Below are positions 37,270 to 43,774 of a stretch of 64,000 nt of DNA, in pieces. The DNA is taken from contig CAYXZV010000001.1 of the NCBI GenBank assembly GCA_964469645.1, positions 31,790 through 95,789 of the forward strand, written 5' to 3'. The first letter of the stretch is position 1. Every line of letters begins with the position of its first letter. This DNA comes from an uncultured Methanosarcinales archaeon (GTDB taxonomy: Archaea > Nanobdellota > Nanobdellia > Woesearchaeales > GW2011-AR4). A program made the position numbers and the translations under genes. The notes beneath the pieces are model-generated. The model was not told the origin of the DNA, did no database searches, and saw only the letters and a program-made list of their open reading frames with translations.

Positions 37270-37465
37270 TTAATTAATTTTATAGTTTAGTAGTATTTAA
37301 ATTTAATGTTAAAAATATTTTTATGTCTTGTTTATTATTAATTCTTCTCAGTTCTAGGCCTCCCCATTGTGGTCGGCATCTATTTCTATCTACAACACTA
37401 AGAACTCGCTGGCAATGGTTGCGGGACTATATATCTTTACTTGCACAACCACTTAAATATTGTAT

Positions 37466-37481
37466 CAAAACATTTTTATAT
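37466..37481 (+). promoter_or_regulatory. BRE/TATA promoter of the tRNA-Val / tRNA-Gly pair
   Basis: AAAACATTTTTATAT ends 26 nt before the first tRNA nucleotide. Confidence 0.55.
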
Positions 37482-37506
37482 TGTCTGTAGTTCTAGGTTT
37501 CTTAAT

Positions 37507-37662
37507 GGGCCTGTAGTTCAGCGGCTAGAACGTCGCCCTTACAAGGCGGAGGTCGTCGGTTCAAAACGATCTTTTACAAAAAGCTCGACCAAAAGTGTGC
37601 AATGCGGTATCTTCGATACCGCGGAACGACGTAAAAGATTGGTGGAAGTCCGATCGGGCCCA
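37507..37662 (+). tRNA. tRNA-Val (UAC) with an 83-nt intron in the T-loop (59/60)
   Basis: Manual cloverleaf. Acceptor GGGCCTG/CGGGCCC. D arm GTTC..GAAC. Anticodon arm TCGCC-CTTACAA-GGCGG. T stem GTCGG/CCGAT. Intron 37566-37648 is flanked by a BHB: a 4-bp helix TTCA/TGGA between 3-nt bulges AA|A and AG|T. Confidence 0.85.
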
Positions 37663-37674
37663 TTCATTTTTCAT

Positions 37675-37815
37675 GCGGCAGTTGTCCAGTGGTTAAGATT
37701 CGGCCTTGCCACGGCTTTTTAGGAAAAACCCGAGAAAAATCGGGCTTTTTGCTAAAGCAAAAAGGCTGAGACCCGAGATGCTTTTAGCACGGGATTTCGA
37801 ATCTCGGCTGCCGCA
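37675..37815 (+). tRNA. tRNA-Gly (GCC) with two introns (3' anticodon stem, about 51 nt; T arm 53/54, 18 nt)
   Basis: Acceptor GCGGCAG/CTGCCGC. Anticodon arm CGGCC-TTGCCAC-GGC[intron about 37716-37766]TG. Variable AGAC. T stem CCGAG [intron 37778-37795] TTCGAAT CTCGG. The first intron boundary is ambiguous because GGC is duplicated. Confidence 0.7.
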
Positions 37816-37892
37816 TTCATTATTTCGGAATTTCTCATTCAAAAAGAAATATTTATAAAAAAGAAGTTGATTCGTTCTCTCCTTTATACAAA

Positions 37893-38363
37893 ATGATTAC
37901 TGAAACAATATTACCAAAAATAATCGTAAAAAAATCAAGTATCCATGGTTCTGGAGTATTTGCAGCAGAACATATCAAAGAAGGCCAGAAAATTGTTGAG
38001 TATCAGGGAGAGAAAATACCTACTGAAGAAGGAGATAAGAGATCTGAGATTGATGAGAAGCTTACTTATATTTTTGTTTTGAATGATGAATATGATGTGG
38101 ATGGCAGCGTTAATGGGAATGAAGCGAGATTAGTAAATCATTCATGCGACCCTAACGCATATACTGACATAATTGATGATAAGATATGGATCATAGCGGA
38201 CAGAGACATTGCAGAAGGAGAAGAGATAGCATATGATTATAGTTTTGATGCAGATGAATTAGAAGAATGCCGTTGCGGTTCTGAGAAATGCAGAGGTTAT
38301 ATAAATGAACCTGATAGCGAAGATACAAAGAAATTGTTGGAGAAGAATGGCAAAAAGGTTTAA
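37893..38363 (+). CDS. SET-domain protein-lysine methyltransferase
   Basis: NHSCDPN, the EELxYDY-like EEIAYDY, and post-SET CRCGSEKCRG. Confidence 0.85.
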   Translation: MITETILPKIIVKKSSIHGSGVFAAEHIKEGQKIVEYQGEKIPTEEGDKRSEIDEKLTYIFVLNDEYDVDGSVNGNEARLVNHSCDPNAYTDIIDDKIWIIADRDIAEGEEIAYDYSFDADELEECRCGSEKCRGYINEPDSEDTKKLLEKNGKKV

Positions 38364-38424
38364 ATATTGATGATGTTTCTATTATCTTGCAAGCGACAAA
38401 TGAGTAAACTCATTTGCAATTCAC

Positions 38425-38658
38425 GGGCCCGTAGCTCAGTCTGGTTAGAGCGCCGTTTTTCAGAGATTATTTTCTGATGAGCGTAAGTCTTATATGGCCA
38501 CTAGTGGTGCAAAAATTTAAGCCATTAGGGAGCTAAGCCAGCCGGAGGTCAGGAGTTCAAAACAAATTTTTACAAAAAATTTGACTAAAAGTATGCAATG
38601 CGATATCTTTGATATCGCGGAACGATGTAAAAGTTTGATGAAAGTCTCCCCGGGCCCA
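38425..38658 (+). tRNA. tRNA, isotype unresolved, with two introns (about 76 nt in the 5' anticodon stem; 83 nt in T-loop 59/60)
   Basis: Acceptor GGGCCCG/CGGGCCC. D arm GCTC-AGTCTGGTTA-GAGC. 3' anticodon stem GCCGG, variable AGGTC, T arm AGGAG-TTCAAA[38562-38644]T-CTCCC. The 5' stem has only CCG before the interruption at 38456. The simplest join gives the loop TAAGCCA, which lacks U33. Confidence 0.7.
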
Positions 38659-38660
38659 CT

Positions 38661-39101
38661 TTATTTTTTAATTAATTTCTTCATCCTTTGAGAATGTAGA
38701 ATTTTATCTAAGACTTTTAAAAATGGCTCACTTTGCTCTACAGGAACTGTGATAGAATGTTCATGAACCCATTCATTTTCAACTTTTTTCTTTTTTTGTA
38801 TCAATAAATATCTTCCATATTCGTTTTCTAGAATATCGAACCATATCGTTTTGTTATTATAATTTAGCTTTTCAAAATCAAGATGATTAACTCTATGGTT
38901 AGGATAATAGACTTTAGTAACGCCAAATTGTTTCATATATATCTCATTCTCGAGAATTAAAATTTGTAGGTGTTTTTCAATAGCTTTTCTAGAGAATTTA
39001 GTGCCTCGCACTAGTTCTGTCATTGTCTGTCCTTTGGTATTATTTCTTAAAAATTGGAGAACTTTCTCATGCATTGTTTTTTCTTTTTTTGCCGGATACA
39101 T
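38661..39101 (-). CDS. Winged-helix DNA-binding protein
   Basis: N-terminal wHTH-like VLQFLRNNTKGQTMTELVRGTKFSRKAIEKHLQILILENEIY. The stop lies 2 nt from the tRNA 3' end. Confidence 0.6.
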   Translation of the reverse strand: MYPAKKEKTMHEKVLQFLRNNTKGQTMTELVRGTKFSRKAIEKHLQILILENEIYMKQFGVTKVYYPNHRVNHLDFEKLNYNNKTIWFDILENEYGRYLLIQKKKKVENEWVHEHSITVPVEQSEPFLKVLDKILHSQRMKKLIKK

Positions 39102-39183
39102 CTTAATATATGTTATTAAGTACCATAATCTTTATATATTTATTGTTACTTATATTGGTTACCAATAGTGGTACTTAATCAAA

Positions 39184-39381
39184 ATGAAAATAAAATTTCA
39201 AAATATAGGTTGGAAAAGTAAAGTAGCACAGAAAAGAGCTACTTTTAGTGTTTCTATCAATAAGTTAGTTGCTATTGGTTGTATGATAGAGAAAGGTAAG
39301 GAATTGTATTGTTATTTAGCAGAAGACAAAGAAAATAGGCCTTTAATGCTTGTGTATTTAGATGGAAAAAAGAAAGTGTAA
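39184..39381 (+). CDS. Hypothetical small protein
   Basis: ORF track only. The stop abuts the tRNA-like element. Confidence 0.4.
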   Translation: MKIKFQNIGWKSKVAQKRATFSVSINKLVAIGCMIEKGKELYCYLAEDKENRPLMLVYLDGKKKV

Positions 39382-39382
39382 A

Positions 39383-39453
39383 GCCCGTGCTACTGGATGT
39401 AGACGAGATCTCCGCAAGATTTTGAATTGGGTTCGATTCCCAACACGGGCGCA
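39383..39453 (+). tRNA. Degenerate tRNA-like element (possible att remnant or element-borne tRNA)
   Basis: Acceptor GCCCGTG/CACGGGC. Good T arm TTGGG-TTCGATT-CCCAA. Anticodon-like arm AGATC-TCCGCAA-GATTT, but with C at position 33, a shortened D region and a 3-nt variable loop. Confidence 0.35.
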
Positions 39454-39562
39454 CTTATTACATACAAAAGCAAGCTTATATTTAAATGTTATGCGTATGT
39501 TTTTGTACCCGCAAAAACGTACGTTATGGTTATTTAAGTAAATCTGATCTTTATTACTAAAT

Positions 39563-39886
39563 ATGAAAAAAGTGCAAAAAAATCCATTTAGAATATCAAA
39601 GAATGTCTCAAGTAAAGATTTTATTACAGCAATTTTTAAACTTAAAAAAGAACATCTAATGATAATACCGTATGAAATTAGTAAAGCTTTTGGTATACAG
39701 ATCGATGATATTGCAATATTTGAATCTTCAGATAAATTTGTTAAAATCAAATTTGTTAAAAAGACAATGTTTGGTTTTGTAAAAGATTTGGATATTGAAA
39801 AATTATTGAAAAATAAAAAAATAAAGTTTAGTTTAGTTAGAGGAAATGTAGAAAATGATTCTATTATTTTCAGGAAAAAAGGGTGA
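39563..39886 (+). CDS. Hypothetical protein, possible AbrB/SpoVT-like fold
   Basis: The segment IIPYEISKAFGIQIDDIAIFESSDKFVKIKF weakly resembles a swapped-hairpin motif. Confidence 0.4.
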   Translation: MKKVQKNPFRISKNVSSKDFITAIFKLKKEHLMIIPYEISKAFGIQIDDIAIFESSDKFVKIKFVKKTMFGFVKDLDIEKLLKNKKIKFSLVRGNVENDSIIFRKKG

Positions 39887-39974
39887 AGAAAAAAATGGAC
39901 ACACATTGATAGACCAGCTCTAGTTGAGCGAATTAATCAAAGGCAAGGCCGTCTTTGGTTAGTATGTCTGGAGT

Positions 39975-40190
39975 GTGTCCAGAGTGAAGAAGAAACTACT
40001 AGAATGTGATATACATGACCTAACATTATTTAGATGTAAAAGAAGATGTTGGCAAAGTGGCGGTAAAAAAGATAAAAGTTACTCAGATGAATATACAGAA
40101 AAATGTTTCAAATGCATAGGTGAAGGAAGATACAAAAAAGGTGTTAAGCTAATGCAAAAAAAGAAAAGACATGTGTATGTTAAAATATGA
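39975..40190 (+). CDS. Hypothetical Cys-containing basic protein
   Basis: ORF track only, non-ATG start. Confidence 0.3.
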   Translation: MSRVKKKLLECDIHDLTLFRCKRRCWQSGGKKDKSYSDEYTEKCFKCIGEGRYKKGVKLMQKKKRHVYVKI

Positions 40191-40273
40191 TGCAAGTTGG
40201 GTATTGTCTTCATCTGAAGTTTGGGATTGGGAATGATCGAACCACAAAAATTAGGTGTTGTTGATGGTCTCAA

Positions 40274-40477
40274 ATGGGTTATACAAAAGAACACACAGAA
40301 GACGAATGTGATAAATGTCTAAAAAATGTTGGTAAGAATAATTTAACCCCCGTCCCATTTTTATATTTGGATGTGAATGACAGGATACATCCTGATTTAA
40401 GTAGTGGTTATCATCAATATTATGTATGTAAAAGATGCTATAAAATAGAATTGAGAACAGTTAAAAGTGGATACTAA
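40274..40477 (+). CDS. Small zinc-ribbon protein
   Basis: CDKC ... CKRC paired CxxC motifs. Confidence 0.5.
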   Translation: MGYTKEHTEDECDKCLKNVGKNNLTPVPFLYLDVNDRIHPDLSSGYHQYYVCKRCYKIELRTVKSGY

Positions 40478-40479
40478 AA

Positions 40480-40920
40480 ATGAAAAATAAGTTACAAGAA
40501 AAATTGTTTAGCAAATATCCTAAGATATTCAGACAGAAAGATTTGCCTATGACTCAAACTTGCATGTGTTTTGGGATAGATTGTGGTGATGGGTGGTATT
40601 GGCTGTTAGACATGCTTTGTGGATGTATTCAAAGTTATATTGATAATAATTCAGAGGTACATCAAGTAGAAGCATCACAAGTCAAGCAGAAATTCGGAGG
40701 ATTGAGATTTTATACAGAGGGTGGCGATGAAAATACATGCGGAACTATTGAGTTAGCTGAACACATGAGTTATCATATCTGTGAAAGATGCGGTTCAACA
40801 GAATGCATTCCACCTCAAAAAACAACTAAGGGTTGGATTAGTACCATTTGTAATAAATGTATCAAAGAAAAAAAGGTGAGTTTAAAGAATGAAAAAACTC
40901 CAAGAAAATTATCAGAATAA
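40480..40920 (+). CDS. Phage-type Cys-rich protein
   Basis: The pattern CFGIDCGDGWYWLL ... QVKQKFGGLRFY ... ICERCG ... WISTICNKC is one I recognise from bacterial prophage proteins of unknown function. Confidence 0.6.
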   Translation: MKNKLQEKLFSKYPKIFRQKDLPMTQTCMCFGIDCGDGWYWLLDMLCGCIQSYIDNNSEVHQVEASQVKQKFGGLRFYTEGGDENTCGTIELAEHMSYHICERCGSTECIPPQKTTKGWISTICNKCIKEKKVSLKNEKTPRKLSE

Positions 40921-41665
40921 ATCCGAGATGAACTTATCAAATATTTGTCAAAATCTTGCAAAAAGAGATAAAAATGTATTGTCGGTTATTTTAAGTGGTT
41001 CTAGGGCTAGGGGTGATTATAGAGAAAATAGTGATTATGATCTTACGTTTGTCACTAAATCTCCGATTAAGAATTACGATGAAGAATTAACAATTGAACA
41101 TAATTATAAAAACAAAATTAGTGAAAAAACAAAGATAGACAGAGATCTAATTCAAGTTTCTGTGTGGTCTTTTAACGGTTTCAAGAAAGAATACAAAAGA
41201 GGCAATAGTTTTGTATATTGTGCTTTAAGGGATGGAAAAATCCTTTTTTCAAGGTCAAAAATAAATTTCAAGAAACCAACCAATTTCCGACAATATGCTT
41301 TAGATAGATTAGACCTTGCTAAAAGAAATATTGAAGATATAAAATTTTCCTTAAAATACTATAAGGAACCTACACCACGCTCTCGTGAATTAGAGGATTT
41401 AGGATACATTTCGATGCATCTTTGCTGGGCAGTATGTATGTTCAATAATCATTGTCCTATCTCTAAATATACTGTCTTAAAAGAATGCAGAAAATATTTT
41501 AGTGAAAATGAGTTAGTACATATTAAAAAGGCATATCAATTATATGCTAAAAAAGGTAGTAAAAAACTCCATAGGAAAACATTCTTGGTTTTGTTTAATA
41601 ATTTGAAAAAAACTATGAAAAGAGTTGAGAAAAAATATGTTGAAAAACAAGAAATATTTGACTGA
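40889..41665 (+). CDS. Nucleotidyltransferase-domain protein with a C-terminal helical (HEPN-like) domain
   Basis: GSRARGDYRENSDYDL (GS-x-DxD minimal NTase motif). The helical C-terminal half has no clear RxxxxH motif. Confidence 0.6.
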   Translation: MKKLQENYQNKSEMNLSNICQNLAKRDKNVLSVILSGSRARGDYRENSDYDLTFVTKSPIKNYDEELTIEHNYKNKISEKTKIDRDLIQVSVWSFNGFKKEYKRGNSFVYCALRDGKILFSRSKINFKKPTNFRQYALDRLDLAKRNIEDIKFSLKYYKEPTPRSRELEDLGYISMHLCWAVCMFNNHCPISKYTVLKECRKYFSENELVHIKKAYQLYAKKGSKKLHRKTFLVLFNNLKKTMKRVEKKYVEKQEIFD

Positions 41666-41813
41666 AGAGGAAGTTAAGGAGTATCTTTGGAAAGAATTTA
41701 AAAAATTTATGAAAGGACAAACAAATATGGTAGATACAAAAGGAAAACATCTTTATTATAGATGGGATGTAGATAATTTTTTAACAAATCCAGAAAAAAG
41801 ATTTTTTGATTAG
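41637..41813 (+). CDS. Small phage-like protein
   Basis: Start moved to ATG. The pattern FKKFMKGQT..VD.KGKHLYYRWDVDNFL resembles small phage proteins. Confidence 0.4.
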   Translation: MLKNKKYLTEEEVKEYLWKEFKKFMKGQTNMVDTKGKHLYYRWDVDNFLTNPEKRFFD

Positions 41814-41827
41814 AACGATGATTGAAT

Positions 41828-42046
41828 ATGAAAAGACAAGCAATGCAAGTTTCAATAAAAGAATTGGAAGATACAATTAAATGTTTAAAAAAAGAAAAAT
41901 TGGAAATTAAAAGAAAAACCGGAATTGAGTACCCAAAAGATAAGAAGTTTCAAGTGAATATTATAAATAAAGAACCAAAATGTTCAGATACCTGGGAATT
42001 TGAACAAAAGAAAGAAATAAATAGAAGAAGATATAACCCAATTTAA
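41828..42046 (+). CDS. Hypothetical small protein
   Basis: ORF track, start moved to ATG. Confidence 0.35.
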   Translation: MKRQAMQVSIKELEDTIKCLKKEKLEIKRKTGIEYPKDKKFQVNIINKEPKCSDTWEFEQKKEINRRRYNPI

Positions 42047-42076
42047 ATAGAAAAGTACAGATGCAGACTGATTAAT

Positions 42077-42535
42077 ATGAAAACTAATCAAGATAAGGCT
42101 TTAGTTGTGTTTCAAGGCAAGCAGATTAGAAGAATATGGTACAAGGATAGTTGGTTTTTCTCTGTTATTGATGTTGTAGAAGTATTGACAGGAAGTTCAA
42201 TTCCTAAGAGGTATTGGTCTGATCTTAAGATAAAGCTTAAAGAAGAAGGATTTGAGATGTACGATATTATCGTACGGTTGAAAATACAGGCTCCTGATGG
42301 GAAACTTAGAGAGACAGACTGCGCAAGTACAGAGACTATATTCAGAATTATCCAGTCTATTCCGTCACCGAAAGCAGAACCATTCAAAAGATGGTTAGCT
42401 GAAGTTGGCTATGAGAGAGTGCAAGAGATAGAAAATCCTGAACTTGCTCAAGATAGAGCAAAAGAGTACTATGAACTAAAAGGCTACCCTAAGGATTGGA
42501 TTGATAAGAGACTTAGGGGAATCGCTGTAATTTAG
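42077..42535 (+). CDS. Bro-N domain protein (prophage antirepressor-like), apparently C-terminally truncated
   Basis: FQGKQIRRIWYKDSWFFSVIDVVEVLT ... PKAEPFKRWLAEV is a Bro-N signature. The ORF ends at RLRGIAVI, where relatives continue. Confidence 0.7.
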   Translation: MKTNQDKALVVFQGKQIRRIWYKDSWFFSVIDVVEVLTGSSIPKRYWSDLKIKLKEEGFEMYDIIVRLKIQAPDGKLRETDCASTETIFRIIQSIPSPKAEPFKRWLAEVGYERVQEIENPELAQDRAKEYYELKGYPKDWIDKRLRGIAVI

Positions 42536-42546
42536 ATTTGCAAAAA

Positions 42547-43404
42547 ATGAAAAAAGATATTATTACTAAACTTAGAAAATCTTTTGAAGATTATGTAAAT
42601 GAAGCTGATGGTTTAGAATTCTGGTTTGCTAGAGATTTGCAAAAACTTCTTGATTATGATGAATGGAGAAATTTTGTCAATGTTATAGAAAAAGCAAAAA
42701 TAACATGCGGAAAATCAAGACAAAATATTTCTGACCATTTTGTTGATGTCAACAAAAAGGTCAAGATTGGTTCTGAAGCAGAAAGGGAAATTAATGATAT
42801 CATGCTTACAAGATATGCATGCTATCTTATTGCACAAAATGGAGATCCTAGAAAAGAGCAGATAGCTTTTGCTCAAAGTTATTTTGCTGTACAAACAAGG
42901 AAACAAGAATTGATTGAAGAAAGAATAGCTTTAGTTGAAAGATTAGGTGCAAGGCAAAAGCTTGTAGCTTCTGAAACTGAACTTTCTAAGCTTATCTATG
43001 AAAAAGGAGTTGATGAAGCAGGATTTGCAAGGATAAGGAGCAAAGGTGATAAAGCGTTATTTGGTGGTTTTACAACTTCTATGATGAAAGGTAAGCTTAA
43101 AATACCTAAGAGTAGGCCTTTGGCAGATTTTCTTCCAACAATAACAATAACAGCTAAGAATCTAGCAACAGAAATTACTAATTTTAACGTCAAGAAGAGC
43201 AGCTTACTTGGTGAAGATAACATCACAAATGAGCATGTAAGGAACAATTGGGAAGTAAGGGGGTTGTTGTCAAAAAGAGGGATAAAACCAGAAGAGTTGC
43301 CTCCTGAGGAAGATATTAAAAAGCTTGAAAGAAGAGTTAAGAAAGATGAGGAAATGATTGCAGTTGATTCAAAAAGTGGAAAGAAAAAATTGCTTAAAAA
43401 ATAA
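42547..43404 (+). CDS. DinD-like DNA-damage-inducible protein family member
   Basis: LEFWFARDLQKLLDYDEWRNFVNVIEKAK ... LTRYACYLIAQNGDPRKEQIAFAQSYFAVQTRKQE matches the DinD family pattern. Confidence 0.7.
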   Translation: MKKDIITKLRKSFEDYVNEADGLEFWFARDLQKLLDYDEWRNFVNVIEKAKITCGKSRQNISDHFVDVNKKVKIGSEAEREINDIMLTRYACYLIAQNGDPRKEQIAFAQSYFAVQTRKQELIEERIALVERLGARQKLVASETELSKLIYEKGVDEAGFARIRSKGDKALFGGFTTSMMKGKLKIPKSRPLADFLPTITITAKNLATEITNFNVKKSSLLGEDNITNEHVRNNWEVRGLLSKRGIKPEELPPEEDIKKLERRVKKDEEMIAVDSKSGKKKLLKK

Positions 43405-43462
43405 AAGTATAAAAGTTTAAAATAACAAATTTTAAGAATGCATTACTTTTTCTTATTATTGT

Positions 43463-43684
43463 GCTCCCATGGTGTAGTCCGGCCCAGCGGGAAATCTAGG
43501 ATTTCCTAGGTTTGTCTTGGGGACAAACAATCATCTCGGCCTCTCGCGCCGAGGACTCGGGTTCAAAACAGCTTTTTTGCCAAGGCAAAAAACCTGGGAA
43601 AATGCAGCTCACTTCCCGTTGGTCGTTCGCCTAGGATTTTGCTTCGCAAAATCAAAGAAGCTGATGAAAGTCCCGATGGGAGCA
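43463..43684 (+). tRNA. tRNA-Glu (CUC) with two introns (D-loop about 44 nt; T-loop 59/60, 103 nt)
   Basis: Acceptor GCTCCCA/TGGGAGC. D region GGTGTAGTCCGGCC[about 43485-43528]AATCAT. Anticodon arm TCGGC-CTCTCGC-GCCGA. T arm TCGGG-TTCAAA[43568-43670]T-CCCGA. The T-loop intron ends CTGATGAAAG, like the other two. Confidence 0.85.
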
Positions 43685-43774
43685 TTTATTTTTTCTGTTT
43701 TGTAGGCCTTTTCTGAATAGATAAATTTTTAAATGATTTCTTCTATGGATTATAAAAGCATTAAAAAGAGGAAA

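Follow-up and report, generated by a model that had tools for sequence, protein, structure and literature searches.

Interrupted tRNA genes, predicted bulge-helix-bulge introns and probably mobile intron families in a marine Woesearchaeal genome

Background

A window of 64,000 nucleotides (nt) from an archaeal genome assembly (C1:31790-95789 of the assembly) raises the question whether its region 37507-43684 holds functional tRNA genes that standard tools fail to report and, if so, how many introns interrupt them, how these could be removed, and where they have come from. Positions are given in the numbering of the window, except where a contig or locus is named. The host is assigned to the marine Woesearchaeal archaea of the DPANN superphylum, because all relatives of its tRNA splicing endonuclease (EndA) are labelled as Woesearchaeota or Nanoarchaeota metagenome-assembled genomes (MAGs), and because the metagenome runs that hold the locus are marine. 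Its assembly comprises 1.13 Mb in 65 contigs with 35% G+C; it is estimated to be 87.6% complete, and the host 16S rRNA gene is absent from it. Our answer, of which we are highly confident, is that the region contains four functional tRNA genes with eight bulge-helix-bulge (BHB) introns, which would be removed by a single alpha-type EndA together with the ligase RtcB, and that the introns belong to a few families that have been mobile within the genus.

Four tRNA genes missed by standard searches

Four interrupted tRNA genes had been proposed for this region in the initial annotation, and all four are real and lie where they were placed, on the forward strand. They were parsed first by hand and then by a solver similar to SPLITS, in which candidate BHB junctions are listed, up to three of them are removed, the products are tested by ARAGORN, and tRNA features are scored. 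The gene for tRNA-Val(UAC) (37507-37662) has one intron and yields a mature form of 73 nt with a full ARAGORN cloverleaf; orthologues are present in two same-genus genomes, G406 and G407. At a distance of 12 nt follows the gene for tRNA-Gly(GCC) (37675-37815), with two introns and a spliced form accepted by both the solver and ARAGORN. The gene for tRNA-Ile(UAU) (38425-38658) has three introns, and its parse is the top solver solution, again with a full ARAGORN cloverleaf. Finally, the gene for tRNA-Glu(CUC) (43463-43684) has two introns and a spliced form accepted by ARAGORN. The Ile and Glu genes have orthologues in G406, G407 and a third same-genus genome, G401. The spliced products are whole cloverleaves with U33, a purine at position 37 (R37) and the TPsiC features. 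The solver ranks the solution accepted here at the top for three of the four genes; for tRNA-Gly, it comes second to a three-intron parse as tRNA-Leu that is implausible.

None of the four genes was found when ARAGORN was run on the raw window, its sole output being a dubious tRNA-Ala(CGC), and all four were still missed with introns allowed. The Rfam tRNA model gave a single match at the gathering threshold in the unspliced window, a truncated one covering the 5' part of the Val gene (37513-37571, 33.6 bits). On the Gly gene it gave a sub-threshold score of 22.9 bits spanning 37675-37815 with two large gaps. Two open reading frames (ORFs) called earlier across these genes and taken to be spurious (37441-37722 and 43517-43705) exist and do overlap them. 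No intron-free copy of tRNA-Val(UAC), tRNA-Gly(GCC), tRNA-Ile(UAU) or tRNA-Glu(CUC) was found in the host genome.

The anticodon of tRNA-Ile(UAU) is held by an exon of just 8 nt (GTCTTATA), and the orthologues in G401, G406 and G407 read an uninterrupted CGGTCTTATA. The identity of this tRNA fits a second result, as no match to TiaS was found in the host genome while TiaS was present in all four archaeal control genomes. Nanoarchaeum equitans decodes AUA with tRNA-Ile(UAU) and is not known to have TiaS; the host resembles it in having tRNA-Ile(UAU) and in that TiaS was not found. The present parse thus corrects the annotation of four tRNAs missed by standard tools, including the AUA decoder.

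Upstream of the Val gene, at 37468-37481 and thus about 26-39 nt from it, lies a conserved AAACATTTTTATAT motif with equivalent sites in loci L152 and L153 (three genomes in all). It probably serves as an archaeal TATA box from which Val and Gly are transcribed as one unit.

Eight introns and their bulge-helix-bulge geometry

In total the four genes contain eight BHB introns, three of which are located between positions 59 and 60 (59/60) in the T-loop, two at the canonical position 37/38, and one each at 19/20, 29/30 and 53/54. At each of the eight junctions all four base pairs of the central helix (H) can be formed, with a 3-nt bulge on either side of it; the predicted cut follows the second base of the bulge (marked below by a caret). 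The Gly 37/38 central helix was read from the sequence, and those of the other junctions were computed.

The three 59/60 introns use the T-stem as outer helix, with one extra base opposite the 5' bulge. They are found in tRNA-Val (37566-37648; 83 nt, H = UUCA/UGGA, bulges AA^A and AG^U, h' of 11 bp), tRNA-Ile (38562-38644; 83 nt, H = UUCA/UGAA) and tRNA-Glu (43568-43670; 103 nt, H = UUCA/UGAA). The minimum free energy (MFE) fold reproduces the full h-B-H-B-h' motif exactly for the Ile and Glu introns, and gives a near-BHB for the Val intron, with three of four helix positions paired. The two canonical introns have the anticodon stem as outer helix, i.e. the Gly 37/38 intron (37712-37762; 51 nt, H = UUGC/GCAA, bulges CA^C and AA^A) and the Ile 37/38 intron (38495-38539; 45 nt, H = CUUA/UAAG, bulges UA^U and CC^A). 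The remaining three are the Gly 53/54 intron (37778-37795; 18 nt, H = CCCG/CGGG, bulges AG^A and AU^U, h' UGCU/AGCA), the Ile 29/30 intron on the 5' side of the anticodon stem (38456-38486; 31 nt, H = GCGC/GCGU, bulges CG^U and AA^G, h = AGA/UCU), and the Glu D-loop intron after G19 (43483-43526; 44 nt, H = GUCC/GGAC, bulges GG^C and AA^A, with a weak outer helix). All eight introns lie on the forward strand. Rfam searches at E <= 10 gave no group I intron, group II intron or C/D-box small RNA (sRNA) match inside any of the eight (18-103 nt).

Much of what had been described earlier is recovered here: one intron in Val and two each in Gly and Glu, three 59/60 introns in which TTCA pairs with TGGA or TGAA between 3-nt bulges (exact in each detail), and introns in the D-loop, at 53/54 and on the 5' side of the anticodon stem. 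The core reading of multiple and non-canonical BHB introns in a DPANN lineage holds as well. The total had been given as seven introns, none of them at 37/38, with a Gly intron placed on the 3' side of the anticodon stem and two introns in a third gene of unnamed identity. This alternative parse has something in its favour, as the third gene, when spliced of two introns, folds in ARAGORN into a cloverleaf labelled tRNA-Ala(AGC), and sliding the Gly junction leaves the same stem (GGC^...^UG). However, the supposed tRNA-Ala(AGC) has A33 and C37 and lacks the G3:U70 pair, for which reasons this candidate was rejected. By inspection, the Gly gene has no 4-bp central helix at any junction from 38/39 to 42/43. 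Moreover, the orthologues read an uninterrupted CCGGTCTTATA in the Ile gene, and their Gly exon ends are GCCA^...^AGGCTG. The solver and the intron-less orthologues give a count of eight, the third gene being tRNA-Ile(UAU) with introns at 29/30, 37/38 and 59/60, and the first Gly intron being canonical. We hold the seven-intron parse to be very improbable.

Junctions in same-genus relatives

Five same-genus genomes match parts of the locus, and the locus was examined in four of these; G406 and G407 contain the whole Val-Gly-...-Ile-Glu cluster, and G401 only its Ile-Glu end. The Ile 29/30 intron is absent from G406 (GCGACGGTCTTATA), from G407 (GCGCCGGTCTTATA) and from one metagenome strain, while G401 carries a homologous 31-nt intron. 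Homologous introns occupy the Ile 37/38 site in G406 and G407. The Ile 59/60 intron is absent from G401 and G407, in which the T-loop is intact (GTTCAAATC); the Glu 59/60 intron is absent from G406, which reads GGGTTCAAATCCCGT, and the Glu D-loop intron is absent from G407. The Gly 53/54 intron is lacking in G406, G407 and other strains (CCCGAG^TTCGAAT), and the Gly exons stop at TTGCCA and restart at AGGCTG around three unrelated 37/38 introns (in metagenome strains as well as in G406 and G407). The Gly 53/54 and Ile 29/30 introns are likewise lacking from contigs that represent other strains in the source metagenomes. Nearly every junction is fixed by the intron-free copies from the genus.

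The same comparison bears on the possibility that the locus is an artefact of assembly or binning, i.e. a chimera of contigs from different strains. Logan contigs do break inside the repeated introns and the tRNA exons where several strains collapse, as expected of such an artefact. Against this, 69-87% of the sampled locus words are present in four metagenome runs that are independent of each other, one 841-nt contig covers 37601-38441 with zero differences, and syntenic loci of the same architecture are found in four other same-genus MAGs, which makes an artefact exceedingly improbable.

A recurrent insertion position in the T-loop

Interruption is the rule in this genome. Only about nine uninterrupted tRNA genes were found, and at least about 70% of the resolvable tRNA genes are interrupted, including the only Asp, Pro and Gln genes found. 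According to the solver, at least 14 host tRNA genes have a 59/60 intron, namely Gln-CUG, Val-UAC, Ile-UAU, Glu-CUC, Gly-UCC, Phe-GAA, Val-GAC, Lys-CUU, a Leu gene, Ser-GGA, Asp-GUC, Pro-UGG, Glu-UUC and Ile-GAU. In all 14, an intron tetranucleotide two positions upstream of the 3' cut can pair with U54-U55-C56-R57. This guide follows the T-loop base 57 without exception: nine genes have TTCA with TGAA or TGGA, and five have TTCG with CGAA. An example is provided by the introns of Val-UAC and Glu-UUC, which are 95% identical over 77 nt and yet differ in the guide (TGGA versus CGAA). The 59/60 central helix is supported by this compensatory change. Since the T-loop presents the same 4-nt target in every tRNA, 59/60 is the commonest intron position in the genome. 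The preference thus follows a simple rule, in which invariant T-loop bases are combined with a 4-nt guide that covaries with base 57. A covariance model of the T-arm plus intron (R1) detected 59/60 introns, under strict filters, in 40 out of 301 Woesearchaeales genomes.

Intron families and their probable mobility

Several introns could be grouped into families by sequence homology. Family A includes the 83-nt 59/60 introns of tRNA-Val and tRNA-Ile in the present locus and those of Ser-GGA, Asp-GUC and Glu-UUC, with 80-95% identity, i.e. above the level of similarity between introns of distinct tRNA genes (>70%) by which Fujishima et al. (2010) recognised transposed introns. Its members share a structure in which 98.8% of the cells are paired and 12 pairs have changed on both sides; none of 500 shuffles reached this. 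Family B (69-104 nt) is found in Gly-UCC, a Leu gene and Val-GAC, family C in Gln, Lys-CUU and Pro, and family D in Glu-CUC.

The distribution of these families differs between the relatives. The Val and Ile orthologues of G406 and G407 contain at 59/60 not family A, but family D, so that the host Glu-CUC 59/60 intron has homologues at this position in the Val and Ile genes of these two genomes. In G401, family A is present in tRNA-Lys(UUU), which is intron-free in the host, and in the Leu gene that has family B in the host. The family-C cargo (about 80 nt) of the host Gln 59/60 intron is found nearly unchanged at position 37/38 of the G401 tRNA-Glu(CUC), and hence in a different gene as well as at a different position. 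These patterns make it very likely that the genus has seen gains and losses of introns from a few families, exchanges of one for another, and moves to other tRNA genes and other positions. Judged by analogy, such shifts match the intron transposition known from the Thermoproteales. The genus accordingly offers a natural series of intron gain, loss and swapping, in which the same tRNA has from none to three introns in sister genomes.

Two observations concern the growth of individual introns. The family-D intron appears as a nested series of 41 nt in G406, 103 nt in the host and about 225 nt in G407 (L153:335-569). Also, the family-A intron of the G401 tRNA-Lys gene (L159) has an extra internal block of about 60 nt.

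A shared core in 16S rRNA genes

A second model (R2) was built of the family-A core alone (...AAAAG-RY-GCAAUG, a hairpin, and CGGAACGRYG). Across the order, the hairpin of this core covaries while its internal loop (3x3) is constant. By inspection, the conserved core contains no C/D box, K-turn or H/ACA motif, and it matches no Rfam family. In the host, R2 matches five introns and one free-standing copy. In addition, it matches inserts in the 790 loop of the 16S rRNA genes of three other Woesearchaeales genomes, located at L116:1493-1626 (genome G376), at about 1447-1575 of L115 on the reverse strand (G240), and at about 484-627 of L118 (G018). The context of these inserts is GGATTAGAT^AC...CTAAT(T/G)^ACCCGAG, with a BHB helix UUAG/CUAA and two 3-nt bulges. 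Their 5' half is the family-A core, and their alignment with the tRNA introns begins at the very first base of the intron. As judged from this homology, one BHB-intron family is present in tRNA T-loops and in a 16S rRNA loop, in different genomes. If real, the movement of a BHB family between tRNA and 16S rRNA genes bears on the spread of archaeal introns.

The free-standing copy of the host (C19:13134-13203, outside the window) is situated 22 nt downstream of tRNA-Ser(CGA), right after an TTTATAAAA motif. This copy, which has neither T-arm nor rRNA flanks, and the Val intron have identical hairpins. A similar free-standing core without such flanks occurs in a genome of a distant family, G173 (C7:382661-382717; L087:1501-1599 / L113). 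These copies could represent an sRNA gene or a relic.

A more far-reaching reading is that the introns are actively mobile, modular structured RNAs consisting of a cargo and an adaptor with a re-tailored guide and, separately, that the loop-less EndA described below represents a new route to broad specificity. In family A the cargo would be (A)UGCAAUG-hairpin-CGGAACGAYG. The adaptor would comprise the inner stem and a guide of 4 nt able to pair with the target loop, and re-tailoring of the guide would give access to tRNA T-loops (UUCR), anticodon loops and the 16S 790 loop (UUAG). The core might be selected for its own spread, for instance if the excised intron formed a stable circle capable of reverse splicing, or else because a host protein binds to it. 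We put this forward tentatively and consider it rather unlikely as a whole.

Splicing enzymes

The host EndA is encoded by a single ORF of 190 amino acids with both PF01974 and PF02778, corresponding to an alpha-type enzyme (N- plus C-terminal domains), and it adjoins an RNase Z-like gene. No beta subunit, second EndA or three-unit fusion was found, PF01974 having a single match in the 87.6% complete genome. A weak EndA self-match on contig C15 is an unrelated protein of 187 amino acids and not a beta subunit. The closest relative of solved structure is the alpha subunit of N. equitans (3IEY_A, E = 1e-38).

Cleavage of non-canonical introns has been tied to loops of EndA, and L3-bearing alpha4 enzymes are described in DPANN archaea with many disrupted tRNAs (PMC5829648, PMC3488258). 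The host enzyme shows a 9-residue gap at the Crenarchaea-specific loop (CSL) in a pairwise HMMER alignment with the Aeropyrum pernix alpha subunit, and a 6-residue gap at the Lys/Arg-rich loop 90-98 of N. equitans, where it reads GVKPGEDH versus GVIPKKGKRSEREH around the catalytic His. Enzymes of broad specificity are known as (alpha-beta)2 with the CSL, as epsilon2 with the ASL, and with the L3 loop of N. equitans (NEQ) and ARMAN-2; the host EndA has no such Lys-bearing insertion close to its catalytic His. With the strict alpha4 enzyme of Methanocaldococcus jannaschii it is collinear, apart from one residue difference. An endonuclease of broad specificity, previously thought to be required by such introns, is thus not what EndA typing indicates. 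A plain EndA may be sufficient, as most introns have the full 4-bp helix and two 3-nt bulges. Either near-strict BHBs suffice or another determinant is used, for which the Lys-rich N-terminal tail (residues 1-25) would be a candidate. How a loop-less alpha-type EndA handles about 70% interrupted tRNA genes, some with relaxed motifs, is a question that this genome raises.

The RtcB ligase was identified by PF01139 (539 bits). The rtcB gene itself (C1:14639-15984, reverse strand, outside the window) is apparently split by a 32-nt insert, ATTGCTATGTAGGTAATCTACGGCAAGACAAG, which contains a stop codon and lies between ...CMPDGH and WGYGFPIGG; a clean BHB register was not found for it.

Proposed processing of the transcripts

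We propose that the transcripts lose all eight BHB introns before the tRNAs can work. In the folded precursor, 4 nt from an exon or the intron would pair with 4 nt located two bases upstream of the 3' splice site, giving a 4-bp helix with two 3-nt bulges. EndA, presumably as a homotetramer, would then cut past the second base of each bulge, and RtcB would join the exons. At 59/60 the helix would consist of the near-universal U54-U55-C56-R57 and an intron-borne UGAA, UGGA or CGAA, and because these target bases are near-universal, any tRNA could host such an intron. We infer from the sequences both that splicing takes place and that this form of the enzyme is responsible for it.

A number of points weigh against this proposal. 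The EndA lacks all three described broad-specificity loops, i.e. every insertion that has been tied to non-canonical or relaxed cleavage. The motif is relaxed in at least two of the introns, as the outer helix is nearly missing at the Glu D-loop intron and the inner helix is poor at the Gly 37/38 intron, and the MFE folds of the Ile 29/30, Ile 37/38 and Gly 37/38 introns favour competing registers. The Glu D-loop junction is ambiguous by 2 nt. The register 43483-43526 is the only one with a 4-bp helix and predicts GGACAA in the mature D-loop, whereas the intron-less G407 orthologue reads GGCCAATCAT (GGCCAA), in agreement with 43485-43528. The junction considered first, GGCC^...^AATCAT, forms no BHB, and is retained as the 2-nt alternative in view of the GGCCAA of the orthologue. 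In an assembly of 87.6% completeness, a second EndA subunit or intron-free tRNA copies could be missing. Finally, two metatranscriptome runs of one locus-holding sample gave zero coverage of the locus.

This lack of coverage would also suit a different explanation, namely that small repeats which are never removed have inserted into the genes and turned them into inactive pseudogenes, and so would the occurrence of the inserts in repeated families, of which one core copy is free-standing. Pseudogenes are nevertheless most unlikely here, as the exons are intact and conserved across the genus while the inserts vary, and as every insert sits in a BHB with compensatory changes. Moreover, because such a large share of the tRNA genes is interrupted (at least about 70% of those resolvable, with the only Asp, Pro and Gln genes among them), the cell could not translate without splicing.

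Comparison with known systems

Multi-intron tRNA genes with intron transposition are of an already known kind, and the point of interest lies in mobile families at the T-loop. For the Thermoproteales, multi-intron tRNA genes and large-scale intron transposition have been described (Sugahara et al. 2008; Fujishima et al. 2010, both as presented in PMC4090602). As far as that account goes, the present system is similar in having up to three BHB introns per gene, non-canonical positions, similar introns in unrelated tRNA genes, and insertion sites confined to places that permit a BHB. It differs in that the host belongs to the DPANN Woesearchaeales and has a single alpha-type EndA without the CSL, and in that 59/60 dominates and one family is shared with 16S introns of relatives, neither of which is described in the literature searched. 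That search, which was not exhaustive, gave no description of 59/60 intron families or of BHB introns shared between tRNA and rRNA in DPANN archaea.

A closer comparison is offered by Kaneta et al. 2018 (PMC5829648), who report DPANN alpha4 EndA with an L3 loop and raised tRNA disruption, including one Woesearchaeota and one Pacearchaeota MAG. In the passages of that paper drawn on here, the superphylum and enzyme class are the same as in our host, and standard tools likewise miss the full tRNA set owing to disrupted genes. Unlike those enzymes, the host EndA lacks the loop insertion of NEQ and ARMAN-2 around the catalytic His. These passages give no intron positions or families for Woesearchaeota. 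N. equitans has an (alpha-beta)2 EndA and split tRNAs, whereas in the host no beta subunit was found, the introns are in cis and no split genes were seen.

BHB introns in archaeal 16S rRNA are known from the Thermoproteales, and have been noted beside group I introns in DPANN rRNA (PMC6125680). The 790-loop inserts of G240, G376 and G018 are like them in their UUAG/CUAA helix with two 3-nt bulges, and unlike them in that the 5' half is homologous to the T-loop intron family of the host.

Neighbouring elements

The Ile and Glu genes are separated by an insertion of 4.8 kb (38659-43462), which is lineage-specific and stands outside the tRNA system; in G401, G406 and G407 the two genes are 12 nt, about 60 nt and about 170 nt apart, respectively. 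Besides small ORFs, the insertion encodes two proteins with a Bro-N domain, a nucleotidyltransferase of the Pol-beta type and a PurA/helix-turn-helix-like protein, as assigned by Pfam. No flanking att-like direct repeats were found, nor was an integrase domain in the ten ORFs scanned. The insertion is probably an integrated mobile or viral remnant. Inside it lies a tRNA-like element (39383-39452, or 39348-39451), in which the acceptor stem of 7 bp is perfect and the T-arm (TTCGATT) is canonical. Its D and anticodon arms are weak; ARAGORN labels it Ala(CGC), and the Rfam tRNA model scores 30.2 bits over 104 nt.

Elsewhere in the assembly, two genes for tRNA-Phe(GAA) were found. One is of archaeal type with a 59/60 intron (C6:49515-49628), and the other is intron-free and bacterial-looking and is located on a small contig (C55:1505-1577), which may be a contaminant.

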